Origin: Phyllobates terribilis
Lineage: Eukaryota
NCBI RefSeq assembly: GCF_046119375.1
Contig: NW_027362767.1
Location: 44,826,001-44,890,000, forward strand
Reading direction: 5' to 3'
DNA length: 64,000 nucleotides
A program made the translations under genes and the position numbers. Under the pieces are notes generated by a model. The model was not told the DNA's origin, ran no database searches, and saw only the letters and a program-made list of their open reading frames with translations. Positions 1 to 55,337 of this stretch are shown one piece after another (within the stretch, counting starts at the first letter, position 1; each line of letters starts with the position of its first letter).

Positions 1-342
1 GTTCCTAGTGAACAGACCCGCCTTCGTCCTCGGCTAGTCTGAACGAAGACCTATAGAATTAAGGGAGGGGTCCCTAAAAGAACTAAGGACTGGGACAAAA
101 AATGGGACACCTCCTAAACAGAAGTTGTTGTAGAACACAAAAGACAAACTGACAAAAAGTACTAGAGGTCCCAGAGGACCAAGCGAACTGACCGAGAAAG
201 GCACCGAAGCACCAGGCTAGCAAGACAGTCAAAACAACACTGAAGTCCAGCAAAGCCAGAAGGGCGGAGCAGGAATATATAGGCAGATGGTCACGTGACC
301 GCAAAACACAAGATAGAGAAAACTAACAGGAGGGTTCTAACA
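1..342 (-). repeat. 3' LTR (partial, truncated by window edge)
   Basis: Matches 4516-4857; on minus strand begins TGTTAGAACC immediately after the PPT. Confidence 0.95.
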
Positions 343-356
343 GTACCCCCTCTTTT
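343..356 (-). other. Polypurine tract (plus-strand primer) of the LTR element
   Basis: Minus strand AAAAGAGGGGGTAC directly 5' of the LTR-initial TG. Confidence 0.85.
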
Positions 357-3300
357 ATGAAGATCCTCCAGGCCCAGGCCTATCTGGAAACCTCCTGTGG
401 AAAGCTTTAACAAGCCTAGGAGCAGAGACATCATCCGTCCTTACCCAGGAGTTGTCTTTGGGACCGAAACCCTTCCAGGAGACAAGATACTGCAATCTCC
501 CTCTATGCCATCTTGAATTCAAAATACGAGAAATCTCAAATTCGCCGTCTTAGATACGTCAGCCTTTTTCAACAAGGAAACATGAAACACAGGATTAATC
601 TTCCAGGAAGTAGAGACATCCAACCTAACAGCAGACGGGTTAACAACCTGAAGCACTTTAAATGGACCCCCAAACTTAGGACCCAGCTTTTTAGAGGGAA
701 TCCTCAACCGCAGGTTCTTCGAGGACAACCAAACCATGTCACCCACAGTAAACAAAACCTCTTTACGTTTCCTGTCAAAATACTTCTTGGATTTCTTGTT
801 AGCCTCTTGAAGGTTGCAACGTACATTAGTCCAAACTCTCTCCAAATCACAGGAAAAATTCTCCTCCGGCACCGCCGACCCTAATTTGGAGAACGAACCA
901 AAAGACGGATGTATCCCAGTACAACAAAAAAGAGTAGAACACCCAGCAGAGGAGGATGTATGATTGTTAAGAGCAAATTCTGCGAGAGGCAGAAACTCCG
1001 ACCACACCTCTTGATTGTCCGCCACACAACGCAAAAACTGTTCTACATCCTGATTTTTTTCTTTGTCTGTCCATTAGACTCAGGATGATATCCAGACGAA
1101 AATGACAAATGGACTCCCAACCTGTCACAAAAAGCACGCCAAAAGCGAGCCACAAACTGAGGTCCTCTATCAGAAACTATATCTGTGGGAATGCCATGGA
1201 GCTTGACAATCTCCTTAACAAACGCCTTAGCGAGTGTCTTGGCGCAGGGCAACTTAATGAATGGAACCAAATGACACATCTTACTAAAACGGTTCACGAC
1301 CACCCAGATGACAGTAAAACCCTCGGACACAGGAAGATCAGTAATAAAATCCATTGTGAGATGCGTCCAAGGTGCACTAGGAACCTCCAGAGGGCAAACC
1401 AACCCCGCAGCAGGAGTATGTGAAGCCTTTGACCTAGCACACACAGTACACTGACGCACCCACTTGATGACTTCCTTCTGCCATCCAGGCCACCAAAAAC
1501 TGCGACTGATAAGTCTCTTAGTCTCCGAAACTCCTGGATGACCTGCCAACCGAGACTCATGATACTCCACAAACAAATCTCTCCTAAAGGCTCCAGGCAC
1601 GAACAACCTCCCATGGGGAGTGTTAGATGGAGCATCATCTTGAGCTTTCAGAATCCCATTCTCCAAAACGGAGTCCAAAGCCGCCACCACAACTCCTTTC
1701 TGTAAAATGCTCTCCTCCTCCTCGGCACCGACCGTAGGAGAGAAGCTGCGAGATAAAGCATCGGCTTTAACATTCTTAGTACCAGGGATATAGGTAACAG
1801 AAAAATGAAACCGAGAAAAAAAAAGTGCCCACCTAGCTTGACGGGCATTCAAGCGCTTGGCAGCATCCAGATAGATTAAATTCTTATGATCTGTGAAAAC
1901 CTGAATAGGAAATCTAGCGCCTTCCAAAAAATGACGCCAATGTTGAAACGCGAGTTTAATAGCCAGCAACTCCTGATTTCCAACATCATAATTCAGCTCG
2001 GTTTCTGAAAATTTCCTCACAGAAGGCACAAGGATGTACTCCATCCCTGTTCTCCTGAGACAAAACTGCTCCGACCCCCACCGATGAAGCATCGACCTCG
2101 ACCAAAAAAGGCTTGGTCTCATCAGGCTGCATAAGGATAGGGGCAGAACTGAACCTCTCTTTGAGATACTCAAACGCTTCAATGGCCTCAGTAGTCTACT
2201 GGACCATATTCGCACCTTTCCTGGTGAGATCAGTTAGATGCTTAACAATTACAGAAAAATTCTTAATGAATTTCCTGTAATAATTGGCAAAACCCGAAAA
2301 TCTCTGTATAGATTTCAAACCAATAGGCCTAGGCCATTCTGCACAGCCTGAACCTTCACCGGGTCCATCTCAAAGCCCTCGCTGGAGACAATGTAGCCCA
2401 AAAAACTAATTTTCTGCACAGCGAACTCACATTTCTCCAGCTTAGCAAAGAGTGAATTATCACCCAATAACTGCAAAACTTCACGTACACTCTGCCAATG
2501 GGACTCTAGATCTGGTGAATAAATCAAAATGTCATCCAAATACACAACCACATTCTTACCAATCAAAGGTCTCAGGATGTCATTAATAAGGTTCTGAAAA
2601 AATGCAGGTGCATTGGTAAGACCAAAAGGCATCACCAGATTCTCAAAATGGCCTACTGGAGTGTTAAAAGCAGTTTTCCATTCATCACCCTCCTTCACAC
2701 GTAACAAATTGTATGCCCCCCGGAGATCAATTTTGGAGAACCACTTGGCTCCCACTAACTGGTTAAACAAGTCAGGAATTAACGGCAATGGGTAGGAATT
2801 GCGTACGGTAATCTTATTAATCTCATGAAAATCCAGACATGGACGTAAACCGCCGTCCTTTTTTTTTTAACAAAGAAGAATCCGACTGCCACAGGCGACT
2901 TAGAAGGTCTAATGTGACCAGCAGCCAGGCTAGTCTGTATGTATTCCTCCAAGGCCTTTCTTTCAGGGATAGTCAAATTAAACAAGCAACTTTTGGGAAG
3001 AGTAGCACCTGGAAAAAAACTCAAGGGCGCAATCATAGTCCCTATGAGGAGGTAAAACTTGAGACTCCTCCTCCGAAAAAAACCTCCAAAAATCTTGACT
3101 AGGTACTGGTAATTCCCCTTTTTCCACAGCCGCAATGCGACCCTTACACCATTTATCATAGCACTTCGGACTCCAAGACTTAATCACATTAGTAGACCAG
3201 TCCAATAAAGGATTGTGCAGTTTTAACCAAGGCAATCCTAGAACAACCGGAGAGGGTAAATTATCTAATACAACCAAGTCCAAAATTTCTTGGTGAACGC

Positions 3301-3570
3301 CATTGATGGTGAGAGGAAATGCAGCAGTCTTGTGGGTAATACATTTCAAAGGAGTGTTATCAATTGCAACCACAGAAATATGTGATGACAAAGGTTTGGA
3401 TTTCAATTTAAGGTTTTCCAAAAACCCTTTATCAATCACATTAAGTGTTGAACCACAATCCACAAATACCTGAAATGCAATCAAATCTCCCTGCAGAGTA
3501 GTACTCCCAGAAAGAAATACTCCTGCAGAGCGTAAACAAGCTATATGGGCGTAACTGATCCTTTTTTTTT
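355..3570 (-). pseudogene. pol (protease-RT-RNase H-integrase-chromodomain), broken by several frameshifts and one TAG
   Basis: Protease FVDCGS; [10 protein letters not shown]...YLDDILIYS; RNase [14 protein letters not shown] and ELLAIK...FTDHKNL; integrase HHCC (H..AGHPG..CTVC), MDFITDLP, SDRGPQF; chromodomain FEISRILNSRWHRGRLQYLVSWKGFGPKDNSWV at ~430-540; TAG at 2196-2198. Confidence 0.95.
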
Positions 3571-4373
3571 TTTTTCTTTACTTAAACGACGCTCACAATA
3601 CTTAATCAAATGGTCAGCTTTACCACAATAAATACACAAACCTTCGGCAAATCTCCGGTCTCTTTCCTGAGAGCGGAGTGACATTGCCCCCACCTCCATT
3701 GGTTCTCCGCTGTCAGAGCAGATTTTCTGGGAACTAGGACCTGACGTTACAGGAGTTTTTACATCATTCAGCCTGGACCTCAGTCTCCTGTCCACACGAA
3801 CAGCTAACTGCATAGCCTCCTGCAGTGTCTCAGGTCCACGGAATGCAAATAGCAAATCCTTAACCCTTTCACTCAGACCAGCAAGAAATAAACATCTCAG
3901 CGCAGAATCATTCCATTTAACTTCTGAAGCCCATCTCCTGAAGTGTGTGCAATAATTTTCAACATCATCTGACCTCTGATTCAAACGTCTAAGTTCTGAT
4001 TCAGCAGATGAGATTCGATCAGGATCATCATATAATAGCCCCATAGCAGAAAAAAATTCTCAACAGACCCCAAACACGGATCATTAGGTTGAAGAGAAAA
4101 GGCCCACCCCTGTGGTTCCTTGCGCAAAAGTGACATAATAAAACCAATGCGCTGTGATTCATTCCCAGAGGATCTTGGTCTCAAACGAAAATATAACAAA
4201 CAAGCATTTTTAAAGGAAAAAAAATCTTGCTGTTTACTACAAAAAACATCAGGCAGGCCTACCTTGGGTTCAACAAAATGCGCTCCAGAACAGCTACTCA
4301 CGTGTTGCTGGAGCTCGGCCACCTCCAGAGACAATCCCTGCAAGCGTTGAGCCAACTCCTGGACGGAAACCAT
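3541..4373 (-). pseudogene. gag (capsid plus CCHC zinc knuckle), one frameshift at ~4050
   Basis: ATG at 4373 (MVSVQELAQRLQ); LRKEPQGWA; LNQRSDDVENYCTHF; GEPMEVG; CIYCGKADHLIKYC knuckle; 7-T run where 8 would restore the frame. Confidence 0.9.
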
Positions 4374-4422
4374 ACTGATCCCCAAATTTCTTTCATTTAA
4401 GTTTTTTTTGGGCTGGACTTGC

Positions 4423-4857
4423 TGTTATGATCTGCAACAAGAACTAAGGAAAGATAGGGGAAAGCTGTCCCTACAGTAAGACTAAGCTGAATTCCTATGA
4501 TGTAGCGGGCTGCCTGTTCCTAGTGAACAGACCCGCCTTCGTCCTCGGCTAGTCTGAACGAAGACCTATAGAATTAAGGGAGGGGTCCCTAAAAGAACTA
4601 AGGACTGGGACAAAAAATGGGACACCTCCTAAACAGAAGTTGTTGTAGAACACAAAAGACAAACTGACAAAAAGTACTAGAGGTCCCAGAGGACCAAGCG
4701 AACTGACAGAGAAAGGCACCGAAGCACCAGGTTAGCAAGACAGTCAAAACAACACTGAAGTCCAGCAAAGCCAGAAGGGCGGAGCTGGAATATATAGGCA
4801 GATGGTCACGTGACCGCAAAACACAAGATAGAGAAAACTAACAGGAGGGTTCTAACA
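4423..4857 (-). repeat. 5' LTR (435 bp, TG...CA termini), TATA box at 4796-4791
   Basis: Plus strand begins TGTTATGA at 4423 and ends CTAACA at 4857; overlap with 1-342 is ~99% identical. Confidence 0.93.
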
Positions 4858-6029
4858 ATGGCTATGTATGTGATCTGGTGTTCACTGGGAACTGGTAATG
4901 TGAGATTAATGAGGACGTGGTGCAGGAGTGGAGTTTTTCCAAGAGTGGGCAGTGGGACTGTGGAAGGTTCGAGGGGTGGAGGCGGAGCTGGGGTGGAGCC
5001 TGGGCGGAGTCTCAAGGGGGCCTGAAAATTTTGCCAGTATGGGGCCCTGAAATTCCTGGTGGCAGCCCTGATCTTGTTGGTTGCAAAGCATCTCCATTCA
5101 CTTGTACTATTCTGCAATGTAGCAAGCGGCGTACAGCGATCTCTGATTGCACGACTTGTGTTACAGCCAAAGTCGCTGTGTAGCCCCAGCCTCGGTAAAG
5201 AAAAGTCCTTGTTCTCATTATGCTAAATGCACATTGCGTTTGCATCTAGTATCGGCTGTATATAAGGCATGTGCCAGAAAGCCACAGTCTTGATAGATGT
5301 CATGGCATCTGTCCAACATAAGGCCCAATTAAATAAGACCTATATGGCATGGTATATGTCCACTGTGCAGATACATTCTGGCTAGACAAAGGTTATAGGT
5401 ACACTCTTTTGGCCTACATCCTGTAAATGGGGATCTATAGATCTATAAAAATGCTAGTATATATGCCAGGAGGTTTTTCCTGGCTTACTCATTGAATGTA
5501 GTGCAGGAACGCAAAGCTATTGCTTCTTAAAATAATTTTTAATCATATTCGTGCCCACAGAGGCAAAAGAAGTGGTGTGACCCACTTGAGAGCCGTCTTC
5601 ATTACTCAAAGCCGAGAGCTGCTACAAAGAGCAGGTTACAATGGGTGTCGTATCATTTTTAATTGGTATTATTGCCAAATTTTAGTCCAGGTTTTTTTTT
5701 ACAGAAAAAACTGATGGCACTTCCAATACAAGATATAGGTGTGAACAGGAGCGTACTAGGAGAAGCTACCTCCATATACAATTAACAAATAAAGTAGTTT
5801 TTTTTATGCAGAATAACACAAAAACGCAAGTGTGTTTTTTGGTTCCGTGTAGAAGCCTACATGGAAAAAAATGCACAGTTCAACAATGTCTTCATACGCA
5901 CAGTGGGCAGGACTTTTTATAAGCTCACATCTACTTTGCTTGAACTATTAAACGCAGAAGATTTCCTGCCACAAAAAAAGCAGCAGAAAAAATGCAATAT
6001 TTATGTAATTTGGAACTATGGCTTTACAT

Positions 6030-6135: not shown

Positions 6136-8929
6136 GATAAAGCCAGCTGTCTTTTTTCTGTAGCTCCTTCGCTGACTGTTTTGCCGCCGTCTTTTGCGTT
6201 GGACCCTTCTTTTCCCTTTTACCTTTAATACAAAGACCCGAAGAAGACTGAACATTTTACTTTTAAATGTATCTCCGTTTCCGAAGCTTTAAGTGGTTAT
6301 AAGAAGCAACAAAAGACTGAATATGTGCACAGCAATGTCCTTTTTACATTCTTTGTGGTGCTTTTTCATGCGGAACCGGCCCAAAAAGACATCGTGTTCA
6401 CATAACCCTTCTCAGAGGAATTTAACAGTGGTGTGCAACTGCAGCATTGAAAAATTTTACCCATAAACTTTCCATAATGGCTGTTTTCTGTGAGTATTTT
6501 GCGGTGCCCGAGATATTTGCCAACTCTTTCAGGAGTCAGGGACGTCTCTGCTTTTCCTAGGAGCCTCACGGACATTCCCAGAGCGGTGGCAAGTATGTTC
6601 CAACCTCAAAGTGACATGGGCCCTGTTTTGTCAACTTCTGATGGGGTTGTCTTCTGCTGGTCCTCTGTTGCATCTGGGCACAAAGAGTCAGTCCAACCCT
6701 GGAAACAACAAAGGGAAGACTCTGTGGAAAGCATGGAACGTGTTGGCTAGAAAGGACGTCATGCTCACTCTCCCTGCAGCATTCAGCTCATTGCTAAGTG
6801 CCTGTAAATAATTGATAGTGGGTCACCTGTATCCACCTCTTCTCCTTTTACTTCCACTGTATCTCGGGGCGATGTTCACATGATCAACCACAAGTGTAGA
6901 ATGAGCGTCACTTATAATGGCGTATCCTGGATATGTGCACTGAAGTGTGCTGCCTAATGACCTGTGCATCCTTCTTCTGAAGGGATTGTAGGGGTGACAA
7001 CATGAACATTTGTTTAGTCCTAAATGAGCCATTGTATCTAAACTTATGAGTGATACTGTCTAATGAGCCATTGTATCTAAACTTATGAGTGAGTGTATCT
7101 AGGGCAAGTTGAAAAAATTCCAATTGGTTCCAACTTTTTGCAACTTGCTTGTTGCAGTGCGACCCCCTTCACCTGCATTACGCTGCGGTGTAAAAGCTGC
7201 ACACAGGGATCTGCGTCTGTCAGACATTTTGTAGTAGGCGCATTTTCAGATGTTTTGGTGGTCCTACGGTAACCATACTTCAAGACAACTCTGGTGAGTT
7301 GGCCATAGACTGGACTGACGAGATGAAGGGCTGATAACTGGAACAGTCACCTTTTGTTTGCTGCTGCCTGTATACGGGAATCCTGCACGTATGCAAAACC
7401 CATGAGTCAGCTGCATGCAACATCAGGAAACACACGGATGAGTCATCCTCAACGCTTTTCAGTACCAGCTACAGGAAATGTGCAAAGTATTAATACAATC
7501 ATATAGGGGCCATATTTCACAGTGTTACAGCAGCCATTCCCAGCCTGACCATGGATTTCCTTTCCCAAAATCAACAGCCTCATATATGCAGTTGAGACTG
7601 TTAGTTTGGGGTCATGAAAGCCACGGTCGGGTTGAGAATTGTGGCCGTAATAATACAGCAACTATAGAATGAAAAGAACACCAAAATAACATAAATAAAT
7701 GTCACATTCTTTACAAAACAAGGTGATCATCAATCATCATCATCAATCATTCAGGGGTCTGGTTAAGTTCTGAAACCATTATGGCCCCAACTTGATCCCT
7801 TCTCCTTTCTGGAATGGGACCCAGCACAGGGAGGAAGTGAAACGTTCCTGCACAGTCTGGGGTCAGTATTTATATATGGGTCTGTATACATTAGGAGTTC
7901 TGCATTCTTTTTATTTAGGGGGTCATGTTTGGGGTCTATACTATTTTCAGGTCAGTGTTAATGCATTGAATTAGCAATAGCAGATTTGGTCTGGGGTCTG
8001 TATTAATTAGAGGGTTTGTAAAAAAAAAAAAAAAAAAAATTGGGGGTGTGGAGGGGGAACTGGTGTGGTTCTGTATTTATTTAGTGAGTCTGATCTGGAG
8101 CGTTATTTAGGTCATCTATAACTCTTGTGACTGTATTCACACTCCTCAACATTGAAATTGTGACACCTGTACGGAAAAGTTCTGGATGGAGACGTTAGTG
8201 TTCTGCAAATGATGAAAACATTGGAAAAAAAATTCTCAAACATCTGGATTCCTTCAGTTTGGAGTGTGAGCCACCTGCAGAAATCCCGGCACTTCCAGCC
8301 TCGGCTGCTATCACTGAGGTTATTAATGGTCGTCTGAGGAAGGTTCTGCCGCTGAATGCACTTGGGCAAATCATCAAGATCTGCTGCTGGCAGCTCCTGA
8401 GTAATGACGTCCCTGGTGTTCTCGAGACAAGTCTGAAGACGCTGCAGACCACGGTAGCACGTTTACATCACGCAGGCTGCTCACAGTAGCATCAGCAATG
8501 TGCGGTCTGGGGGTGTCATCTTGTAAAGCAGCTTCTGGGACACTTTGGGGAAATGGCCGAACAACCGGGTCCATGATTGATCCGTTCTGTGCTGCACGTA
8601 AAATTAGACATCATTTACTGAGCCTAAGGAATCACACATTATCTCCAAAAAGCAGCAGAAGGAATTTTAGTGTATTTAGGGGGGTCTGTATTGTTTTTGG
8701 GGGTCTGGTTTTGAGTTTGTATTACTTTGTTAGTTTTAGGGGTCTGTATTACTTTTGGGGATCTGGGGTCCATATTGCTTTTGGGGGTCTAGGATTCTTA
8801 TTACTTTTGCTGATTTGTGGTCCATATTTCTTTTGGGGGTATAATCTTGGGTCTATATTACTTTTGGTGGTCTTGGGTCCATATTACTTTCAGGTGTCTG
8901 GTCTGGGGCTTTTATTACTTTTGGTGGTT

Positions 8930-9340
8930 TGGGGTCAGTATTACTTTCTGTAGTCCAGTCTGAGGCTTTTTTACTTTTGGGGGTCTGGTCTGGGGCTTTT
9001 ATTACTTTTGGGGGTCTGGTCTGGGGCTTTTATTACTTTTGGGGGTCTGGTCTGAGGCTTTTTTACTTTTGGGGGTCTGTTCTGGGGCTTTTATTACTTT
9101 TGGGGGTCTGGTCTGGGGCTTTTATTACTTTTGGGGGCAGGGTCTGGGGCTTTTATTACTTTTGGGGGTCTGGTCTGGGGCTTTTATTACTTTTGGGGGT
9201 CTGGTCTGAGGCTTTTTTACTTTTGGGGGTCTGTTCTGGGGCTTTTATTACTTTTGGGGGTCTGGTCTGGGGCTTTTATTACTTTTGGGGGCAGGGTCTG
9301 GGGCTTTTATTACTTTTGGGTGTCTGGTCTTTTATTACTT
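8930..9340. repeat. 31-bp G/T-rich minisatellite (GGGGCTTTTATTACTTTTGGGGGTCTGGTCT)n with degenerate flanks from ~8680 to ~9560
   Basis: Period 31 measured directly (ATTACTTTT at 9001 and 9032); explains the spurious ORFs at 8498-9577. Confidence 0.92.
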
Positions 9341-9679
9341 TTAAGTCTGGTGTGGGGTCCGTATTACTTGTTTGGGTCTGGTCTGGTGTCCGTATTAGTT
9401 TTGGGGGTCTGGGTTATTTATTACTTGTGGTGGTATGGAGTCCATATTACTTTTGGGGTGGTCTGTATTAATTTTGGAGATCTGTATTTGTTTGGAGAGT
9501 CTGTATTGCTTCGGGGCGTTGTATTTATTTCGGGGGTCCGGTCTAGGGCGTTATTTCTGGGGCTGGTCTGGCGGTGACAATCATTCTATTCGGGAGTGAT
9601 TGCAGTGGCAGCCAGTGCGTTGTCCTGTATAAATCAGTAATTTTGCCGCACAACCCCCTCACTTTTCAGCATCTCCAAG

Positions 9680-14071: not shown

Positions 14072-16550
14072 GTTAGTTTTGAGTGCTGCTTTTTTTATTT
14101 TTTTTTTCCCAGTACCTTCCTAAGTGGCTGTGTTGTAATCTAAAAAAAATCTCATAGCCTTCAGGTCTTTACATTATAGAATTGCAATAAAATGTGGATT
14201 TTTATAAGATCTGTAGCACGACAGAGTCCCTCACATTAACTGGTTGCGGAAAGCACAACCACATAAAACGTCGGGCAGGTCGGCCTATTACTATGCAGGG
14301 AGCCGGCTATAAGAGCTGACAGATTTCTCTATAGATTAGGAACATATGGGTTTATTACCGGATTACTGTATACAGTCCTGGAAGCTGCAAACATCACTGC
14401 TTCCTCTAGACCCAGCGGTCATTGGATTGCCGGATGTCCAGAGGGAACAGAAGCTGCCGGGTGTGAACTCAGCAGCTCTAGCCTTAGCGTGAGTTATTAA
14501 GCAAATTTAGATACAGGAAAAAGCTGAGGAAAAATATATATTTGTCTCCCAGAAGTACTTTATGAAATTATAAGGGGGCACAATATATAAAATATGTTTA
14601 TAAAAAAAAAAAAAAAGAAAAGTCGCTGCCATTCTGAAACCCACATGTCCGATTTAATTATTAAATAATTGTTACAAACGTGGAACACAATTTAAAGTGC
14701 ATAAAAAAGAAAAAAAAACTTAAAATGCAAAAGAATAAACCTCCCACATATTTGTTTTTCTTTACATCCACTCATTACCACTGATATCAGTAAAAAAAAA
14801 AAGCCTCTTTTTGTAATGTTTTATTTTTCTTTTCTTTGGAAGGCTCGTCATCTTAATGTGTTTTCTAATTAAAGGCCAGAATCTGTAATAACCTATTGAG
14901 TTAAATTTTACAATGGTATTGTGAAGAAATATTCCATCATATTATTAAGATCTAATCATGATAATTTTATTCGAATGTTACCAATTTTCTATAAAGTTTG
15001 AGATCGCCCAGAATATTTGGTAATTGGTGCTCACTCCTCTTATGTGAGGCTTAGAAGAAGTTGATTTAAGATTTTGATAAAGAAACCTTTTTTTCTGTGT
15101 ATATTAGGCGGCCACTGTGTCAGCCATGTTGTTTCCTTTCTTTGCAGTGATGATGATGGTATCAGCAGCGCTCGGATTACCCACATACATAACATAGAAA
15201 CTGCTGACAGTGCACCTGTGGGGGGCGATAAACAGAAAGCGTTTTGGGGACTGAAATAATATTGATGACTGGTGAATGATTGTTTTGTGTAGATGTCTGA
15301 AAACTAAAGCCAGGGTGTCAGGAAATGGTAGAAAAATTGCTGAAAGTGGTGTATTTAAAAGCATATTATTTTCTATTAGGCCTGGCATGATGGGAGTGGT
15401 AGTTCTAGTTGCACAGCTTTGAGCCCTCTGTGTATGTGGTGTGGTAATGGATGTTTGCAAGGGACTTGACCCGGCTGGTGTGTTTGCTGTCATTGTGACA
15501 TCTGTGTGTGTTTTGTCATTTTCTTGCTTGGTTTGCGTACATCGTGGAGGGCCGTCTGTGACCCCGCAGATCCATATCCTGCAGTAATGGCTTCTTTCAT
15601 AGTCATGATGGGATTTTTTTATGTTGTAAGAGGAACTGTTATCTCTTTGCAAAACTTCCTTCCTCCTGATTATCTGCAGCAGTAGAGACCTGTCCTGCTC
15701 TTGTAAACTGAGATTTTCAGACGGCTTTTTTTTTCTCTCTATATACCGTATTTATTTCAGGAGAGTAAATACCATATGTACCTTTCACAATTTCAGGCTT
15801 TTGATACTAGAACAAGGAGATATATTTATTCTCCTCCTTAGGACTGTCATTACAGCTCTTATCAGTTGTCACCCATCTTTCCCCCAAACTGTGCATTTTG
15901 CATTATTTTTTGGGGGTCTATGGAAGAGTTTAAATTATTTGGGGATTTTTCCAGGCTCCCATGAGATCTGTGAGTCGCCCATCAACTTTTCACGTATTTA
16001 TACCTTGGGTCCCGATTAATCTTGAGAACCAAAGGAGCGAGGTCTCAGCTTCTTATTCTCGGCATAGCGCTGCTCCCACTGCACAGGGATTTGCTACAGA
16101 AGTTTTTTGGAGTGAAGGGGGAAGTTGCTGTATGGCACAGGCATAGGAACAAGATATGGGGTCACTGTGGAAGCGCTCAGTAACCTGATATAATTGTGTT
16201 GGTGAATTATGAATGATGCTTTGTATGGTTGATGTCAGCTGATAGCACATGACACAGCTCTGGCCTGACACCTGGTAGAATGTAGAATATATATATATTA
16301 TACACATACACACCATGGTGTTAATGGGTTTTTCTTTCTACACACTAAATGGGTTATAACTGTTTGATCGGTTTGGTCTTGCTCGTTGCACTCCCCACTG
16401 ATTGTCAAAATGGGGTCTTTGTGTCCTCTGGATGGAGCTCAAGTTGAGTTTATGGTATGATGCACTATTCAAACTTATGGCATGGACTAACTCGGATGAG
16501 CACCGCGCTGAGGTTACTTTGTAAGTGATAAAGCTCGAATGAAGCATTAA

Positions 16551-17630
16551 AGTGCGTGCGTGACCTCCGCTCCGCACGTCTCCTCCTGGTCAGTCTGTAG
16601 ATCTCTCTTGTGTGACCTCCGCTCCGTGCATCTCCTCCTGGTCACAGTCTGTAGAGCTCTCTTCTCTGTCCTCCGCTCCGTGCATCTCCTCCTGGTCACA
16701 GTCTGTAGGTCTCTCTTGTGACCTCCGCTCCGTGCATCTCCTCCTGGTCACAGTCTGTAGGTCTCTCTTCTCTGTCCTCTGCTCTGTGCATCTCCTCCTG
16801 GTCACAGTCTGTAGGTCTCTCTTCTCTGTCCTCCGCTCCGTGCATCTCCTCCTGGTCACAGTCTGTAGGTCTCTCTTCTCTGTCCTCCGCTCTGTGCATC
16901 TCCTCCTGGTCACAGTCTGTAGGTCTCTCTTCTCTGTCCTCCGCTCCGTGCATCTCCTCCTGGTCAGTCTGTAGGTCTCTCTTCTCTGTCCTCTGCTCCG
17001 TGCATCTCCTCCTGGTCACAGTCTGTAGGTCTCTCTTGTGTGACCTTCGCTCCGTGCATCTCCTCCTGGTCACAGTCTGTAGGTCTCTCTTGTGTGACCT
17101 CCGCTCCGTGCATCTCCTCCTGGTCACAGTCTGTAGGTCTCTCTTCTCTGTCCTCTGCTCCGTGCATCATCTCCTGGTCACAGTCTGTAGGTCTCTCTTC
17201 TGTCCTCCGCTCCGTGTATCTCCTCCTGGTCACAGTCTGTAGGTCTCTCTTCTCTGTCCTCCGCTCTGTGCATCTCCTCCTGGTCACAGTCTGTAGATCT
17301 CTCTTCTCTGTCCTCTGCTCTGTGCATCTCCTCCTGGTCACAGTCTGTAGGTCTCTCTTCTGTCCTCTGCTCCGTGCATCTCCTCCTGGTCACAGTCTGT
17401 AGGTCTCTCTTCTCTGTCCTCCGCTCCGTGCATCTCCTCCTGGTCACAGTCTGTAGATCTCTCTTCTCTGTCCTCTGCTCTGTGCATCTCCTCCTGGTCA
17501 CAGTCTGTAGGTCTCTCTTCTCTGTCCTCCGCTCTGTGCATCTCCTCCTGGTCACAGTCTGTAGGTCTCTCTTCTCTGTCCTCCGCTCCGTGCATCTCCT
17601 CCTGGTCACAGTCTGTAGGTCTCTCTCGTG
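16551..17630. repeat. ~54-bp pyrimidine-rich minisatellite (~20 copies), ERO1A intron 4
   Basis: Unit GTCACAGTCTGTAGGTCTCTCTTCTCTGTCCTCCGCTCCGTGCATCTCCTCCTG; GTCACA at 16801 and 16855. Confidence 0.95.
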
Positions 17631-18300
17631 CATGTGTGACCTCTGTTGGGTGATCGCCCTGGTGTGAGCCTTAATGGAGGACATATTGGTTACTAAGTGA
17701 CAAATTATCTACCGTGTGCAGAGATTGCATGTTGGTTACATGTAATAATTAGGCAGAATTGCCAATTGAGACTGTAGAAAAGCTGAATAGCAAAAGCTCC
17801 TATGACCGGATTGAACGTGATGAAGAATGACATCGCGTGGGGAGCGTTATGTTTGGCGAGTTAGTTAGATGAGCTGCTCTGTGGTCTGTCGCGGGGGAGG
17901 GGAGCCTCCATAGGCAGAAAGCCATTGCCCCGGGCTACTTGTCTTGTTGGTATTTGCTCACGTGTTTTATTTGCAGATTACATTGTTAATAATTACCGCT
18001 ACAAAGTGCACAGGGAAAATATGGTAATTGTGTTTGGCTGGCTTGTTGCCTCCATTAATATTTACATTGATTAGTTACCATGGTGATGACACTAAATCTA
18101 TTACACGTCACCGGATATTAGTGTTAGGATTGTGCATTTCCTGCACACGAGGGAAACTACAGATACATTACTGAGATGCCACTCATACTGCATTATATAA
18201 CAACTGCAGTCAGAAGTCTGCTGATCACAGGGGATGTTTGTATTTTGCAAATTGTCCTCTATGAACCAGATAATCTGATGTAGGGAAGCAAATATTCTCC

Positions 18301-19915
18301 TGACTGCACCAGCAGAATAGCGAGTGCAGCTCTGGAGTATAATACAGGATGTAACTCAGGATCAGTACAGGATCAGTAATGTAATGTATGTACACAGTGA
18401 CTGCACCAGCAGAATAGTGAGTGCAGCTCTGGAGGATAATACAGGAGGTAACTCGATCAGTAATGTAATGTATGTACACTGTGACTGCACCAGCAGACTA
18501 GTGAGTGCAGCTCTGGGGTATAATACAGGATGTAACTCAGGATCAGTACAGGATTAGTAATGTAATGTATGTACACAGTGACTGCACCAGCAGAATAGTG
18601 AGTGCAGCTCTGGAGGATAATACAGGAGGTAACTCAGGATCAGTAATGTATGTACACAGTGACTGCACCAGCAGAATAGTGAGTGCAGCTCTGGAGTATA
18701 ATACAGGATGTAACTCAGGATCAGTAATGTAATGTATGTACACAGTGACTGCACCAGCAGAATAGTGAGTGCAGCTCTGGAGGATAATACAGGAGGTAAC
18801 TCGATCAGTAATGTAATGTATGTACACTGTGACTGCACCAGCAGACTAGTGAGTGCAGCTCTGGGGTATAATACAGGATGTAACTCAGGATCAGTACAGG
18901 ATTAGTAATGTAATGTATGTACACAGTGACTGCACCAGCAGAATAGTGAGTGCAGCTCTGGAGGATAATACAGGAGGTAACTCAGGATCAGTAATGTATG
19001 TACACAGTGACTGCACCAGCAGAATAGTGAGTGCAGCTCTGGAGTATAATACAGGATGTAACTCAGGATCAGTAATGTAATGTATGTACACAGTGACTGC
19101 ACCAGCAGAATAGTGAGTGCAGCTCTGGAGGATAATACAGGAGGTAACTCGATCAGTAATGTAATGTATGTACACTGTGACTGCACCAGCAGACTAGTGA
19201 GTGCAGCTCTGGGGTATAATACAGGATGTAACTCAGGATCAGTACAGGATTAGTAATGTAATGTATGTACACAGTGACTGCACCAGCAGAATAGTGAGTG
19301 CAGCTCTGGAGGATAATACAGGAGGTAACTCAGGATCAGTAATGTATGTACACAGTGACTGCACCAGCAGAATAGTGAGTGCAGCTCTGGAGTATAATAC
19401 AGGATGTAACTCAGGATCAGTAATGTAATGTATGTACACAGTGACTGCACCAGCAGAATAGTGAGTGCAGCTCTGGAGTATAATACAGGATGTAACTCGG
19501 GATCAGTAATGTATGTACACAGTGACTGCACCAGCAGAATAGTGAGTGCAGCTCTGGAGGATAATACAGGAGGTAACGCGATCAGTAATGTAATGTATGT
19601 ACACAGTGACTGCACCAGCAGAATAGTGAGTGCAGCTCTGGAGTATAATACAGGATGTAACTCAGGATCCGTACAGGATCAGTAATGTAATGTATGTACA
19701 CAGTGACTGCACCAGCAGAATAGTGAGTGCAGCTCTGGAGTATAATACAGGATGTAACTCAGGATCAGTAATGTAATGCATGTACACAGTGACTGCACCA
19801 GCAGAATAGTGAGTGCAGCTCTGGAGGATAATACAGGAGGTAACTCAGGATCAGTAATGTAATGTATGTACACTGTGACTGCACCAGCAGAATAGTGAGT
19901 GCAGCTCTGGAGTAT
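18301..19915. repeat. 81-97 bp satellite array with a 348-bp higher-order repeat, ERO1A intron 4
   Basis: Unit TGACTGCACCAGCAGAATAGTGAGTGCAGCTCTGGAGTATAATACAGGATGTAACTCAGGATCAGT...; identical ORFs at 18505, 18853, 19201. Confidence 0.97.
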
Positions 19916-20886
19916 AGTAGGATACGTAATGTAAAAGTATGGATATTGCAAAGTGTTTCTACAAAAGCACTAGAATTTTACTTAAATGTGTGGTGGTCTT
20001 TATTCTTCAGCCCTCTCTGATCTCTTGTTATCTCTGCCATCTGGGGTCTGTCCTCGGTACATGTTGCTGATGCAGATGGGCACTAGGCGGTTAGTCGGGC
20101 TTTTCCCCGTACTTTCAGAATGACTTGTATTCCGTTACTTTATCAGCAGATCAGTTGTATTTGGCGTTTTACATAACTGCATTTTGTTCCACCCTCAAAA
20201 AATTCAAACAAATTGACAAAAATAATACAAGAAACCCTTTCAACTTAAAGATACGGTAATTGTATATCTGAAACTTGGCAAACTTTTTCTAAACCCATGA
20301 GACTTGTGCAGCACCGTGAGGGTGTATTCTCAGTCATATTGCCTTTTTTCTTGCCTGTGACCTGGCCCACAACCTCCATGCATGATCCTTAACATTACAT
20401 ATATTTGAAGAAAGTTTTATCACCTTTTGTGAAGGTCATGGAAAGTGTAGCTTGCCTTTATGTCCAGCTGTTCTAGAAAGATAATGGAGGCGGCGGGGCG
20501 GCTGCCAGGAAGATATCATGGCTATTTTGTAAAGTATAAGCCATGTTTGTATGTGATCCATTGCACCCAACCCCTATGGGGTAAGTCAGGAGGGCTGGCA
20601 GCAGTTCCGGGGCTGTCAATTATTATTGTGGTGTTTTTCCTGCACTGATACATTGTAGCAAACGGACAAACCAGGAGAGGGATTTGTGGTGGGATATCGG
20701 ACTCCTATGTAATTGTCTAGATGAGACGCCACCCATGTCCTCAGATTGCGGTACTGTAGCTCCATAGGGCAGAGCTGCAGCACCAGGCACGTCCTGTGGG
20801 TAGGTGTGATGCGTGGCTTTTTTTTTTTTTTAATTTTGCTTTAGCATCACTTTTTTTTTTTTTTTTTTATGCGGTTTGATTTACAG

Positions 20887-29394: not shown

Positions 29395-30992
29395 CAGTGG
29401 GGAAAAAAAGTATTTATTCAGCCACCAATTGTGCAATTCTCCCACTTAAAAAGATGAGAGAGGCCTGTAATTGACATCATAGGTCGACCTCAACTATGAG
29501 ACAAAATGAGAAAACAAATCCTGAAAATCACATTATCTGATTTGGAAAGAATTTTTTTTCAAATTTAGGTGGAAAATAAGTATTTGGTCAATTACAAAAG
29601 TTCATCTCAATACTTTGTATCCTTTGTTGGCAATGACGGAGGTCAAACGTTTTCTGTAAGTCTTCACAAGGTTGGCACACACTGTTGCTGGTATGTTGGC
29701 CCATTCCTCCATGCAGATCTCCTCTAGAGCAGTGATGTTTTGGGGCTGTCGGTGGGCAACACGGACTTTCAACTCCTTCCAAAGGTTTTCTATAGGGTTT
29801 AGATCTGGAGACTGGCTAGGCCACTCCAGGACCTTGAATGCTTCTTATGAAGCCACTCCTTCGTTGTCCTGGCGGTGTGCTTGTAATCATTGTCATGCTT
29901 AAAGACCCAGCCATGTTTCATCTTCAGTTCCCTTGCTGATTGAAGGAGGTTTGCACTCAAAATCTCACGATACATGGCCCCATTCATTCTTTCATGTACA
30001 CGGATCAGTTGTCCTGGTCCCTTGGCAGGGAAACAGCCCCAAAGCATGATGTTGCCACCCCCATGCTTCACAGTAGGTATGGTGTTCATTTGGATGCAAC
30101 TCGGCATTCTTTCTCCTCCAAACACGACGAGTTGTGTTTCTACCAAACAATTCTACTTTGGTTTCATCTGATCATATGACATTCTCCCAATACTCTTCTG
30201 GATCATCCAAATGCTCTCTAGCAAACTTCAGATGGGCCCTGACATGTAATGGCTTAAGCAGGGGGACACGTCTGGCACTGCAGGATCTGAGTCCCTGGCG
30301 GTGTAGTGTGTTACTGATGGTAGCCTGTGTAACGTTGGTCCCAGCTCTCTGCAGGTCATTCACTAGGTCCCCCTTGTGGTTCTGGGATTTTTGCTCACTG
30401 TTCTTGAGATCATTTTGACCCCACGGGGTGAGATCTTGTGTGGAGCCCCAGATCGAGGGAGATTATCAGTGGTCTTGTATGTCCCATTTTCTAATTATTG
30501 CTCCCACAGTTGATTTCTTCACACCAAGCTGTTTGCCTATTGCAGATTCAGTCTTCCCAGCCTGGTGCAGGGCTACAATTTTGTTTCTGGTGTCCTTCGA
30601 TAGCTCTTTGGTCTTCACCATAGTGGAGTTTGGAGTGTGACTGTATGAGGTTGCGGACAGGTGTCTTTTATGCTGATAACAAGTTCAAACAGCTGCCAGT
30701 ACTACAGGTAATGAGTGGAGGACAGAGGAGCCTCTTAAAGAAGTTGTTACAGGTCTGGGAGAGCCAGAAATCTTGCTTGTTTGTAATTGTACTTATTTTC
30801 CACCAGAATTAAAAAAAAAAAAAAAAAAAAAAATTCTTTCCAAATCCGACAATGTGATTTTCAGGGTTTGTTTTCTCACTTTGTCTCTCATAGTTGAGGT
30901 CTACCTAGGATGTCAATTACAGGCCGACCTCATCTTTGTAAGTGGGAGAACTTGCACAATTGGTGGCTGACTAAATACTTTTTACACACGTG
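29395..30992 (-). mobile_element. Tc1/mariner DNA transposon, degenerate transposase (ATG 30621 to ~29606), ERO1A intron 9
   Basis: ~200-bp TIRs (CAGTGGGGAAAAAAAGTATTTATTCAGCCACCAATTG and its inverse); TA flanks; [38 protein letters not shown] motifs; many frameshifts. Confidence 0.95.
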
Positions 30993-35270: not shown

Positions 35271-38038
35271 TGCTTCAGATTTTTCTATTCTGCGTGACTT
35301 TTAGCTGCACTTCTACCCCATCTCCGGATGAGGCGCGAATAGCTGCTTTTTTAAAGATGGGATAGAAAAACCTATCCTAAGACGTTATGCCCTGTATACT
35401 TTGCCCATTTCTGTCAATTATCCAGCCCTTATATTTTTTTTTCTGCATCCGATATTTTATATATATTGGTTATAATTTTAGGGCAGAAAACCAAACAAAA
35501 AAACTACTCTTGGTTGTTGATGGCTGTAACGCAAGCCTTCTCTATAGCAAAGAGCTATCCGATCAGGTGCAACCAAGCGGTAAAATGCAGAGCTGCCCTA
35601 TTAAATGCAATTTTAGATGTAAGTAATTTTTTTTTTTCTGTGAATCTGTTCTCCGAGTGGGAGGGATTGAAGGAGTTGTACATACTACTGGTACTCAGGG
35701 ACCACTAACAGTTCAGATTCTTATTGTTATCCAGTTTCCGTGCAGTCCGAAAAAAAAAAAATGTATATATCCGCATGATTTCGCAATGTCTTGTTTACCA
35801 GGCATAGGATTGTACTAAGGCTGCCCTCTAGTGGTTTAGTAATGCAGATCCAAAAATTTATGTCCAGTTTCAACCCCTACCACTAGATGGCAGGAGAACT
35901 TGAAATCAAACTTTTCAAAAGTTACTTATTAATGTCTGCATGTGACTTCTTCTCATTTTGTTCTTGTTTTCCTCTAATTTTTATCCTTTTTTTTTTTTTT
36001 TTTTTTTTTTTTATCCATTCCATTGTTCTTATGCTTTGTACTAGGATTTCAGCACACGCTATCTGTATATTTATGGCATATTTTACTGTTTGACTTGTCA
36101 TTATGACTTGAATTTCTTGCAGCTAATACTTTTAACACCTCATCTGAAGAACAAGCTTTGAGAAACAGGGTAATGATAGTGTAAATCCTCACAGGACTAA
36201 GATGCTGCGGATTACTGAACTAGTACTGGTGTATAAATATCATGTACTGTACATTGCTGCGAGAGATGTTGGTGTTGCAGAAATAAAAATAATTACACTG
36301 CACAATAAAAAAAAAAAAAAAAAAAAAAGATCTGCAGGTTAAGGGCTTGTTCAGACAAACGTATTAAACAATCCGTATGCAAAACTGAGAGCAGTCGGAC
36401 GGCACCGCAAGCGATGCAAGTCCATGTGGTAGTTCACATGACTGTTTTTACACACAAGTCGATGGTCTGCATGGAACGAATCGCAGCGTTTGCTACAGTG
36501 ATCCGTATTCTGGATCAGATCTGTCCAATGATTGCGTAAAAAAAAACCTGATCACCTACGGGTTACCATGTGTAAACCATGCGTTCCTCATGGATCCATT
36601 ACTGTTGTTAAGCTGGGGAAACTGGTTTAGACCTTATATTAAATTGTTCAAGTAGAAAACTGATGAAGAATGGATGCTTTTTGCATATTCTCATGTGAAC
36701 TCGGCCTTAGCGGCAGCAGTCTCTAAACGCTTACTGGCCGTCCAGTTACAATGTAATCCCAATGATATATTCAGCTCTGCTACATCTGTAGGTATGAGGC
36801 TGGGGCAGATGAGTTTTTATCAAAAAAATAATTTTCTAATTTAAAAAAAAAAAAAAAATTTCTCTGGTTTATACATCAACAATATAAAATTATTGTTCTA
36901 ATACAGTTGACAGTTTCCAATATTGATTGCAATGGATCGGTAGAAAATGGATGCAATACAGATGGTGTCTGTAGTATTCACCCCCACTTCCTACGAGGAC
37001 TTTATTTCCCCCATAGTTTATAATAGCCCTGTACAATTTTAATGTGATCCGCGCAGTTATGTTCCATATGCTTGTCTGAACCAGGCCTTAGATGCACAAT
37101 CATGCTTGGATCCAATGAGCGAGTACCATGTAGTATCTATGCAGAGGCAAGGGTATTGTCAATCCCCCTATTGGCTTTAATCAGGGATCCTATAGAAAGT
37201 TTCTGAACCTTTCTCCCCTGTTCAGCCAGTTGTCAATCCCTTGTATGTGCATCTTTGGGCTTTGATCTTATTTGGCCCCCATACTTTATACTGCAGCGCT
37301 AGGCGTCAGATGCCTGGGTCACTGGATTAGTTTGTTCACCAAAATAATTTAAGTGGCTATATAGAGTAAGGATTGTTCCAGATTGTAAAAAAAACAAACA
37401 AACAAACTACAACTCCCAGCATGCTTCATACACATCTGCGTGAGATGAACACCTGGCCAAACCAATGACGTTCCGGATTTCACTCTCTAAATGCTTGCAG
37501 GCTTTGAGGAATGACAGGCTTGCAGATAACAGGACTTGTATAAGGTCCAGGACCTTTGGGTGGGTGTGGGGTCTTCTAATGAAACAGCCATATATTAGCG
37601 CCTGGCCGCCATCGCTGCTCTGCAGCTCGCTGTGGTATGGAGCGTCTGCAATACCAGGCGACACAATCACGTTCTGCGTACGAGAGCTTGCAATCTACGG
37701 CCAGAACAGTCTGCACCATTTTATACCTGTATGTGACGTTTGTGTATTTATTAACCCCTTCCCCTCCAACTGTACAGAACTGTTACAACTTTAGCACATT
37801 GAAATAAACTTCATGTTGATAACCATGAGATACGAGGCTTATTACTTTCTTTGTACTGGATGGTTCGAAGGGAGGAAGCAACAACCTTGGCTCTGAGACG
37901 GCTTTGTCGCCTACTTCCTGCACTGGCTCGGAGGAGTAGTAGAAGACTTTGGAAATCCAAGTGCTTCTCACTAAATTAGAATATTATCAAAAAGTTAATT
38001 TATTTCAGTTCTTCAATACACAAAGTGAAACTCATATA

Positions 38039-39678
38039 CAGTGGGTACAGAAAGTATTCAGACCCCTTTACATTTTTCACTCTTTGTTTCATTGCAGCCA
38101 TTTGGTAAATTCTAAAAAGTTCATTTTTTTCTCATTAAAGTACACTCTGCGCCCCATCTTACTGAAAAAAAACAAAACAAATGCAGACATTTTTGCAAAT
38201 TTATTAAAGAAAAACTGAGATATCACATGGTCACAAGTATTCAGACCCTTTGCTCAGCCACTCATATTTAAGTCACATGCTGTCCATTTCCTTGTGATCC
38301 TCCTTGAGATGGTTCTACTCCTTCATTGGAGTCCAGCTGTGTTTAATTAAACTGACAGGACTTGATTTGGAAAGGCACACACCTGTCTATATAAGACCTC
38401 ACAGCTCACAGTGCATGTCAGACCAAATGAGAATCATGAGCTCAAAGGAACTGCCCAAGGAGCTCAGAGACAGAATTGTGGCAAGGCACAGATCTGGCCA
38501 AGGTTACAAAAGAATTTCGGCATTACTCAAGGTTCCGAAGAGCACAGTGACTCCCATAATCCTTAAATGGAAGAAGTTTGGGACCACCAGAAGTCTTCCT
38601 AGACCTGGCCGTCCAGCCAAACTGAGCAATCGTGGGAGAAGAGCCTTGGGGTTCTTCTTTACCTCTCTCACCAAGATCACTGTAGGTGAGCTCCAGCGAT
38701 GCAGTAGGGAGATGGGAGAAAGTTCCACAAAGTCAACTATCACTGCAGCCCTCCACCAGTCGGGCCTTTATGGCAGAGTGTACGACGGAAGCCTCTCCTC
38801 AGTGCAAGACATATGAAAGCCCGCATAGAGTTTGCTCAAAAACACATGAAGGACTCCCAGACTATGAGAAATAAGATTCTCTGGTCTGATGAGACGAATA
38901 TAGAACTTTTTGGTGATAATTCTAAGCGGTCTGTGTGGAGAAAACCAGGCACTGCTCATCCCCTGCCCAATACAATCCCAACAGTGAAACATGGTGGTGG
39001 CAGCATCCTGCTATGGGGGTGTTTTTCAGCAGCAGGGACAGGACGACTGGTTGCAATTGAAGGAAACATGAATGCGGCCAAGTACAGAGATATCCTGGAT
39101 GAAAACCTCTTCCAGAGTGCTCTGGACCTCAGACTTGGCCAAAGGTTCACCTTCCAACAAGACAATGACCCTAAGCACACAGCTAAAATAGCAAAGGAGT
39201 GGCTTCAGAACAACTCTGTGACCATTCTTGACTGGCCCAGCCAGAGCCCTGACCTAAACCCAATTGAGTATCTTTGGAGAGACCTGAAAATGGCTGTCCA
39301 CCAACGTTCACCATCCAACCTGATGGAACTGGAGAGGATCTGCAAGGAAGAATGGCAGAGGATCCCCAAATCCAGGTGTGAAAAACTTGTTGCATCATTC
39401 CCAAGAAGACTCATGGCTGTACTAGCTCAAAAGGGGGCTTCTACTCAATACTGAGCAAAGGGTCTGAATACTTATGACCATGTGATATTTCAGTTTTTCT
39501 TTTTTTAATTAATTTGCAAAAATTTCTACATTTGTTTTTTTTTTTTTCAGTCAAGATGGGGTGCAGAGTGTACTTTAATGAGGGAAAAAAAAAATGAACT
39601 TTTTAGAATTTACCAAATGGCTGCAATGAAACAGAGTGAAAAAATTTAAAGGGGTCTGAATACTTTCCGTACCCACTG
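38039..39678 (+). mobile_element. Tc1/mariner IR/DR-type transposon, full length (1640 bp)
   Basis: TA|CAGTGGGTACAGAAAGTATTCAGACCCC ... GGGGTCTGAATACTTTCCGTACCCACTG|TA; inner direct repeats (AAGTATTCAGACCC) at ~38235 and ~39460. Confidence 0.97.
38427..39454 (+). pseudogene. Tc1 transposase with intact DD34E triad, one frameshift (~38790) and a 21-bp inversion
   Basis: MSSKELPKELRDRIV; GRPAKL; [21 protein letters not shown]; ends AQKGASTQY*. Confidence 0.95.
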
Positions 39679-39710
39679 TAATATATAGAGTCATTACAAA
39701 CAGTGATCTA

Positions 39711-52500: not shown

Positions 52501-54579
52501 CATGGGGGGCTGCCTGTGGGGGCGCTATACCTGTGCTGTGGGGATATCTTACTGCAGTGGCTTGCAAAAGTATTCACCCCCTTGACTTTTTACCTATTTT
52601 GTTACATTACAACCTGTGTGTAAATATTTGTATGATCTGATTTGTGTGTGATGCATCAGCACTAAATAGTGTAAGGTGGTGAAGTGAGAAAAATATAGGA
52701 ATAAATAAATGTATGGGATCAAATAACTAAAGATTGGCATGTGCATAAGTATTCACTAGTGTTGAGCGAGCACTAAAATGCTCGGGCCGAGCTCACTGTG
52801 ATACTCGGGTGCTCGACCCGAGCAACAAGCCCAATGTTAGTCTATAGGAGACCCGAGCATTTTTGCGGCGGCACCCCCGGCAGTCTGTAGAAAGCCTAAA
52901 AAGTGCCCAAAACGATAGTGACAGTGCTCAAAAGACATGGGGACAGCATGGGGATCGCCCCTGGAAGCATTTCTGAACCCCAGGTCACTGCTGTCAACAA
53001 CGTGGTCAGAGGTATTAAGCCACTTTTAAGGGCTCACAATAAAACGTTCAAAAACAAAACTGAAACGGTTTTCCTGTGAAATATGTTAAGGAACTTCCTT
53101 TCCAGGGTAAAGACTTGTGTATAAGGTAAAATAAATAGCCAAAAACAAAAATACTCCTCCACACCTTGGGCTATGTTCACAAGTAGCATTTTTTATGCGT
53201 TTTTGCACTTTTGTATTGCTTTCAACCGTGACAAATGCATTCACCGGGAAATGTCATTTTAACATTTTACAACCTTATCTGGCCATGTGCTGTGTGACAC
53301 ATGCATACAGTGCTGAAAAGACATGGGGACAGCATGGGGAAGACCCCTGGAAGCATCTCTGACACCCAGGTCACTGCCTAAAAGTGTGCCCATCAGAAGT
53401 GATCCTTGCCGCATCAGAAGATGCAGACTTGCAACTATCCCCATGCAAGTCCTTGTCCCAGGGCAGTGTTCAATTGTACCTCCCCCATTCCTTGCAATGC
53501 AAGCGCAAATATGCAGCCTGCCACCCACCCGCAGGCTGCAATACTATACTGCTAGCTTGCACTTGAAATAGGGCCTTTTAGTTTGGAGGAGGCCGAAGCT
53601 GGCCACTACCTCATGGCTGCTTTGGCAGCGAGGTATCCATACTCAGTCCCCAGCCGCCAGGGGGCGGTCGGGTGTCCACGCTCGGTCCCCAGCCGCCAGG
53701 GGGCGGCCGCGTGTCCATAAACGGTCCCCAGCCGACCCTATTTCTCCTGTCACCTTCCCACACACTTTTCTTAGCCTGGCCTGCTTTAGGGCAGCATTGG
53801 ACGAGCCCACCAGAGAACCAGACTCCTCCGGTGGGCCCTGGCTTCTCCATCAGGGGAGTTGAGAGTGCCAAGGTGAGGAGCATGATGATGATGATGATGA
53901 TGATGATAGAAGTTAGCATCTGCTTTGTTTTGTTGTAATGCAAGCGCATGTATGTAGTAGCGGCTAGGCCTGAGGTGGTCAGCGTTTTGGCGCATATCCT
54001 ACCTCCTCCGAGGATTGCTGGATGTTTTCCTGCTACTATCCCAGTTCTATGACTCCCGTTAAAACAAAGCTTCAGGTGATAAATGATGGATGAGGTGGTG
54101 GTAAAGGAGAAAGAGCAGGAGGAACAGGTACCATTCACATCAATATCAGGCCGGTCAACCACATATGTCTTGTAGGATATGTTTCTGTAACAAAAGGAGC
54201 GGTTCGGCTACACAGTTATAGGGCATACAGTGAGTGCAATGCCTACCAAAAATTGAGGCACTCCAATGCCCCTTGGAAATGACATGGGGGTCAGAGGGCC
54301 TTAACTAAACCATTTTTTCCATTTATAGCAACTGGGTCTCCTGTGCACTGTTGGCCTAAGCAGTGAATGGAAGGCTTTCCAAAAATTATGAGGAACTGCA
54401 ATGCCCCTTGAGACAGACGTGGATTACAGCATACTAAAAACCTTCTACCCATTATTGGGGAGTGAGTCTCCCTTAGTTTTCACCTTTGCATTGAAAAGTA
54501 AAAGCTGACTAAAATTAGGAGGAAATGCAATGCCCGTTGGAAGAGTCATGGAGGTTAGAGGTAATTAAAAACAATATTT

Positions 54580-55060: not shown

Positions 55061-55337
55061 AAGAGCCATACAGTACAGCATCTTAAAAACATTATTCCCA
55101 TTATTGGGGAGTGGGTCTCCCATAGTCTTTGCTTATGCCTTCCAAGCAAAATCTGCCAAAAATTAGGACGGAGGAACTTGCAATGCCCCTTACAAGAGCC
55201 ATGCAGTACCGCATATTACAAACATTATTCCCATTATTGGGGAGTGGGTCTCCCATAGTCTTTGCTTATGCCTTCCAAGCAAAAGCTGACAAAAATAAGG
55301 ACGGAGGAACTTTCAATAATGGCAACACGGACCACGG

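Follow-up and report, generated by a model that had tools for sequence, protein, structure and literature searches.

Structure of the element at the locus

The window, i.e., the whole 64,000-nucleotide stretch of Phyllobates terribilis DNA that was analysed, begins with a single LTR element. It occupies the first 4.9 kb on the minus strand, from 4857 to just beyond the window start (Table 1). The TG...CA LTR pair, the target-site duplication (TSD), the polypurine tract (PPT) and the order protease, reverse transcriptase (RT), RNase H and integrase (PR-RT-RH-IN) identify it as a Ty3/gypsy LTR retrotransposon, and the chromodomain at the integrase's C-terminus makes it a chromovirus. The 5' and 3' LTRs differ at 6 of 435 sites and are thus 98.6% alike.

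Table 1 Features of the element (family A copy) in the window
Feature	Position	Strand	Remarks
Target-site duplication, 5 bp, GCCAT	4858..4862	-	Second GCCAT adjoins the 3' LTR, just outside the window
5' LTR, 435 nt, TG...CA	4423..4857	-	6 differences from the 3' LTR
Putative TATA box, TATATAT	4790..4796	-	30 nt upstream of the predicted start
Predicted first 9 nt of the RNA (putative self-primer)	4758..4766	-	Pairs exactly with the PBS; position shared by five other families
R arm of predicted helix 2 (partner: U5 end)	4749..4754	-	Variable among subfamilies
U5 arm of predicted helix 3 (U5-leader stem)	4446..4454	-	In 28/30 LTR-selected copies, also in A2 and A3
U5 end: arm of predicted helix 2 and integrase end motif	4423..4428	-	
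Spacer between LTR and PBS, 2 nt	4421..4422	-	
Primer-binding site (PBS), 9 nt, no TGG	4412..4420	-	
Leader arm of predicted helix 3	4389..4397	-	1 mismatch in the window copy; perfect 9-nt complement in 28/30 copies
gag, two frames, CX2CX4HX4C knuckle	3541..4373	-	PF03732 and PF19259 on the second piece; first piece without domain hit
Protease piece	2978..3577	-	-1 frame relative to the gag end
Reverse transcriptase piece	2315..2866	-	PF00078, E 1.3e-35
RNase H and integrase pieces, two frames	519..2233	-	PF17917, PF17921, PF00665, PF24626
Chromodomain piece, integrase end	358..549	-	PF00385, E 6.2e-13
Polypurine tract, then 3 nt and the 3' LTR	346..356	-	
3' LTR	1..342	-	Further 93 nt past the window start

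Pfam domains were found on five of six coding pieces and comprise retrotransposon Gag, aspartic protease, RT, RNase H and the zinc finger, core and SH3 domains of integrase. Since the reading frames contain several stops and frame changes, the window copy is not intact. Its chromodomain and integrase core are in different frames. Gag has a CCHC motif and the protease follows in the -1 frame, but gag and pol meet at an A-run in what is a broken copy, and a motif search found this junction in no other copy. A search of the element strand for the poly(A) signal AATAAA gave no match.

Several other repeats share the window. The same 86/97-nt tandem repeat forms two arrays 42 kb apart (18174-20060 and 61589-64000), and other minisatellites lie at 8875-9397, 16537-17640, 54477-55100 and 59694-60134. 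Long terminal inverted repeats flank elements of about 1.5-1.6 kb at 38037-39680 and 29437-30950. The former ends in TACAGTG...CACTGTA, termini which we take to resemble those of Tc1-type DNA transposons.

Classification and abundance

The family of the window element, here called family A, is abundant in the genome. An 18-nt word from the LTR end and PBS has 26,552 exact matches (control 0). Family A represents a very large recent expansion, and sampled LTR pairs are 97-99.5% alike.

Among the best 120 of 6571 RT homologues, the best-scoring named proteins come from frogs, followed by fish, plants, algae and fungi. A quick IQ-TREE analysis of RT was run on 177 columns and 43 rows, namely the window element, 14 other elements of the genome and 28 of the 120 homologues picked by organism. 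The element falls within a 32-row clade of frog and fish sequences (SH-aLRT 99, no bootstrap), and the plant, algal and fungal rows fall outside it. As the tree holds no named Tf1, Sushi-ichi or Amn-san reference, it places the element in a clade without fixing its nearest named relative. The chromodomain and the all-vertebrate RT clade together fit the vertebrate V-clade of the Tf1/sushi group.

The primer-binding site and its complement

An earlier note on this DNA had described a 9-nt PBS lying 2 nt past the 5' LTR, an exact reverse complement of it inside the LTR, and a distance of 30 nt between that complement and the first T of a TATATA box. All three observations are correct. The PBS, AAGTCCAGC, lies at 4420-4412, and its exact complement, GCTGGACTT, is found at 4766-4758 and once more in the 3' LTR (251-243). 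The first T of TATATA is at 4796, 30 nt before the start of the complement at 4766. The LTR end at 4423 is set by the 3' LTR and the GCCAT/GCCAT TSD and is therefore independent of the primer site. The spacer reads GC in the window copy, as opposed to GT in 28 of 30 LTR-selected copies.

Chance seldom produces such a match. A complement of at least 9 nt anywhere in the LTR (offsets 0-5) arose in 44 of 5000 dinucleotide shuffles, and one within a 12-nt slot near TATA+30 in 1 of 5000. The pairing can be extended beyond the primer, as previously proposed for UGUUG and UAACA. The extension amounts to 6 bp, including one G-U pair, between UGUUGU (4754-4749) and AUAACA (4428-4423); it is reached across a 3x2 internal loop, not across the bulge that had been described.

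The PBS had not been recognised as the complement of a tRNA 3' end, and rightly so. Every mature tRNA ends in CCA, and TGG is absent from the 33 nt after the 5' LTR. The usual priming by a tRNA 3' end is therefore excluded, and no list of tRNAs is needed for this conclusion.

Conservation of the pairing within family A

Conservation across family members, which had been anticipated, was assessed in two samples. The first consists of the 30 best LTR matches, window included, and is biased because it was chosen by similarity; primer and PBS form 9/9 pairs in 25 of these copies, and one-sided changes are seen in the other 5. The second sample comprises 20 copies picked by RT alone, 15 of which show both helix strands. 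Here, 9/9 pairs are formed in 11 of 15 copies (9 by script, 2 by eye where the alignment was gapped), and 4 have one mismatch. Moreover, subfamilies A2 and A3, with RTs 94-95% identical to that of the window element and LTRs only 75-76% identical, keep the same 9-mer pair.

Compensatory changes between PBS and R had been suggested as a check. Across the genome, 95 LTR/PBS junctions differ at PBS position 7, and none of the 30 copies examined among them carries the mirror change in the primer. Within family A, the pairing is thus conserved without covariation, and the lack of compensation at position 7 is read as decay after insertion.

The variants at this position (4414 in the window) are 66 T, 16 C and 13 G. 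Of all singleton changes at A:T sites, 43% are A-to-T, as are 19/40 of those in the same CAG context (Fisher p 0.02), and the excess at position 7 may reflect context-dependent mutation. The spectrum of the family is itself unusual, with 154 singleton A-to-T transversions vs 128 transitions at A:T sites (L002-L030 and L272-L301 compared with the window copy). Rearranged or chimeric copies also occur. L289 has an inverted LTR start directly after the PBS, L218 has a family-A PBS behind a different U5, and L252 contains two subfamily LTRs within one stretch.

Primer sites of other families

Other families were gathered from the genome via three PPT-like patterns, a procedure blind to the primer site. 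It yielded 57 stretches of 10 kb, of which 30 had no LTR pair and 27 had one; 3 of the latter lacked a usable end, and 24 had an assignable end. The LTR end is evidently misplaced in three stretches (L072, L127 and L264). In 16 of the 24, a site 1-2 nt past the LTR has a perfect 9-10 nt complement, which begins 30-31 nt downstream of a TATA-like 7-mer. Three of these 16 (L077, L126 and L252) have inflated LTR lengths, probably owing to nested or duplicated copies. TSDs fix the LTR ends in 16 of the 24 elements, the window element not included. Thirteen of them have a perfect 9-10 nt complement, again 30-31 nt after a TATA-like 7-mer, and the remaining three have a single substitution each; the 3' LTR of one of these (L129) retains the full 10-nt match.

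Six primer-site types (A, B, F, G, H and J) are present in the genome. Each pairs over 9-10 bp with its own LTR and over at most 4 bp with those of the other types. Each of the five non-A families has a primer site of its own and a 10-nt complement to go with it, and each family's match is reached by 2-16 of 1500 shuffles. The RTs of the non-A families are 56-76% identical to that of the window element (L077 and L263 gave no RT hit). Family B is represented by one clean copy without RT hit (L077) and two decayed copies, and the TATA-like word of family F is weak (5/7). All predicted primers start with a G preceded by a pyrimidine, which fits the Pol II initiator consensus.

The compensatory changes that are missing within family A appear between families. 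The LTR 5' parts of sister families G and H are 72% alike, and the two differences between their PBSs are both mirrored in the primer. Hence, the primer site appears to follow the LTR and not a host RNA, and this cross-family pattern is the strongest evidence for self-priming. Since five related families retain such a match although its letters differ, the element likely primes its own copying.

Some of these families have further peculiarities. In family J (L261 and L263), the last 300 nt ahead of the 3' LTR show no chromodomain motif. Measuring only 4.3 kb and without RT hit, L263 is possibly deleted or non-autonomous, yet it keeps a 10-bp self-primer. The LTRs of family G (L122-L125; 1.0-1.2 kb) contain an internal tandem repeat of about 35-40 nt, the copy number of which differs between paired LTRs.

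Predicted fold of the RNA

Folding of the first part of the transcript, another check that had been suggested, gave the expected helix. The predicted fold of 4770-4400 closes the primer/PBS helix and extends it by the R stretch (z -1.96; 7/100 shuffles as stable). In transcripts that run from the predicted start and stop 5 nt beyond the PBS, the central helix has a mean probability of 0.91-0.99 in 11/11 cases, in a layout that places both strands at the ends and so favours pairing. When a 60-nt leader was included, with nested-only folding, the helix kept at least 0.76 in 8/11 and was lost in 3/11; the program used cannot form crossing helices.

Two flanking helices would complete the structure. 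Candidate helix 3 joins U5 to the leader (4454-4446 with 4397-4389), with each arm found in 28/30 LTR-selected copies. Compared with shuffles of eight representatives (uncorrected p), helix 3 gave p 0.020 in A2, 0.001 in A3 and 0.085 in the window copy, and helix 2 was above shuffles in A1 only (p 0.014). In families B, F, G, H and J, no flanking helix was stronger than in shuffles. For family A, these results lend some support to a candidate three-helix "pretzel" layout. The earlier note had missed the U5-leader helix as well as an internal match to the anticodon arms of tRNA-Ser and tRNA-Arg.

Alternative primers

This internal match raises the question of tRNA halves. Either always or at times, a host tRNA-Ser(UGA) or tRNA-Arg(UCU) cleaved within its anticodon loop might supply its 5' half as the primer of family A, in the manner of copia-type elements, although we consider this improbable. 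An anticodon-arm pattern search for the PBS complement gave 301 matches (control 11). ARAGORN found tRNAs in 24/33 stretches, and a tRNA-Ser(TGA) variant and tRNA-Arg(TCT) contain all of the 9-mer, with its last base at the first position of the anticodon; tRNA-Gln(TTG) pairs over 8 bp with the PBS. These comparisons are targeted pattern matches, and an Rfam tRNA search of the genome gave tRNA-Lys(TTT) arrays only. The window copy pairs over 10 bp with one tRNA-Ser variant, which is due to its private spacer base, whereas pairing ends at 9 bp in the usual family A copy. Nor is a tRNA-templated extension of the PBS enriched: among the first 100 listed of 230 variants, the extending base is the least frequent, with 8. 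Modified bases at 26, 32 and 34 of tRNA-Ser and tRNA-Arg would, we assume, weaken the pairing with the PBS. Priming by tRNA halves leaves the complement at TATA+30 in six types unexplained. The PBS of the other families changes along with the LTR, and a 9-10 bp tRNA match exists in family A only. Pyrimidine-U before the anticodon is invariant in tRNAs, and by eye no anticodon arm with this feature can be made out in four of the five remaining primer sequences. Half-tRNA primers are documented for Ty1/copia lineages, and a plant survey confines such sites to copia lineages (PMC6317226).

Two observations on tRNA matches may be added. A pairing of 11-12 bp from copy L002 was rejected, as L002 has a rare variant after the PBS. 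Stretch L269 (genome contig C11 near 605.01 Mb) is a tandem array of tRNA-Ser(TGA) with a period of about 2.3 kb, and includes a tRNA-Ser(TGA) variant whose anticodon stem has a C-A mismatch and which carries the full primer 9-mer.

A dual use of the site deserves equally little credence. Family A would then have drifted to a PBS read both by its own RNA 5' end and by the 5' halves of tRNA-Ser(UGA) and tRNA-Arg(UCU), and the halves could also be used by it or block it. If true, this dual-read PBS would be a live intermediate between two priming modes. The primer might also be the element's own sequence acting in trans, from the second RNA of the packaged dimer or as a 9-mer from the 3' repeat. 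The 9-mer is indeed present in the 3' LTR, and DNA sequence is blind to the difference between cis and trans. However, the fixed position at TATA+30 points to the RNA 5' end and not to the 3' repeat, helix 2 continues the fold-back stem in cis, and a primer from the 3' repeat would presumably need two cuts, so that priming in trans also seems unlikely. Least probable of all, and hardly to be expected, is a pairing that arose by chance or serves RNA folding or packaging alone, with priming by something else. The primer role is deduced from the pairing, and about 1% of shuffled LTRs contain one such 9-mer match, but six different types share one position and one spacing. Furthermore, the paired site occupies the very spot at which minus-strand synthesis has to begin, and the element has no alternative primer site.

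Proposed mechanism

Self-priming by the RNA 5' end is therefore the preferred reading. The tRNA-independent self-primer predicted in the earlier note is supported by the absence of TGG, by the pairing kept within the family and by the five other families. The window element is a broken copy of an abundant vertebrate chromovirus, which very probably primes reverse transcription with the first 9 bases of its RNA, starting at 4766.

By analogy, the mechanism is likely that of Tf1. Pol II would start at the G at 4766, and RNA bases 1-9 would fold back onto the PBS, 2 nt past the 5' LTR, in a pairing held in place by the R-U5 and U5-leader helices. Cleavage after base 9 by the RNase H of the element would free the primer, which RT would extend across the spacer into U5. 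Synthesis would thus begin 2 nt outside the LTR, and the resulting 2-nt extension would be trimmed by integrase. The start site, the fold, the cut after base 9, the priming and the extension with its trimming are all predictions from sequence. The spacer mirrors the bases before the 3' LTR in most families (GT/AC in A, G and H; TT/AA in J; no mirror in B and F), which suggests such a trimmed 2-nt extension of the cDNA. According to PMC11042837, Tf1 cDNA often carries a copy of the PBS. This could offer a route by which primer and PBS are kept matched over time.

The genome provides a clean comparative case in a vertebrate, with six primer sequences, one fixed spacing and a start predicted to the base. 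The very large size of family A suits direct testing of the proposal of vertebrate self-priming.

Comparison with known systems

Self-priming has already been proposed for the vertebrate Tf1/sushi group, and the window element is an ordinary member. The proposal reportedly goes back to Butler et al. in 2001, who are said to have considered fish and amphibian elements. To our knowledge, self-priming has been shown by experiment for yeast Tf1 only, and a literature search, with few subscription papers within reach, found no experimental test in a vertebrate element. In line with the background given in the earlier note, PMC6317226 attributes self-priming to Tf1/sushi elements "from yeast and vertebrates", and PMC4600332 does so for those "from fungi to vertebrates". 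A further paper likewise reports self-priming for the group and describes their RNAs as a three-helix "pretzel" (bioRxiv 2022.12.06.519325). Among the LTR elements of X. tropicalis, PMC4131045 reports a chromodomain in Amn-san only.

The window element resembles the vertebrate V-clade in many respects. It shares the Gypsy order PR-RT-RH-IN, a C-terminal chromodomain, a CCHC Gag and an apparent -1 frame of pol, along with the high copy number in a frog, the lack of a tRNA primer site, the predicted self-primer and the candidate pretzel. It differs in forming a family of its own, with a distinct LTR and a distinct primer sequence. With the half-tRNA-primed Ty1/copia elements Osser, Bryco and Bianca (PMC6317226), it shares a PBS without TGG able to match a tRNA anticodon arm. 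Unlike them, it belongs to another superfamily, the match is only 9 nt long and found in one of six primer types, and a complement exists in its own RNA.

The closest mechanistic parallel is found in Tf1 and Tf2 of Schizosaccharomyces pombe (and Tj1, Tosmo1-3 and Tcry1). The likeness lies in an RNA 5' end, here predicted, that is complementary to the PBS, and in the three-helix pretzel, a candidate layout here, combined with a chromodomain integrase. In Tf1, the first 11 bases pair with the PBS and the cut falls between bases 11 and 12 (PMC7175516), whereas the primers of the frog families are 9-10 nt long. The PBS of Tf1 appears to abut the LTR (PMC11042837), whereas 1-2 nt lie between them in the frog families. 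Tf1 has one ORF and no CCHC motif (bioRxiv 2022.12.06.519325), whereas the window element has an apparent frame change and a CCHC motif. A primer of 9-10 nt and a 2-nt spacer are small differences from Tf1.
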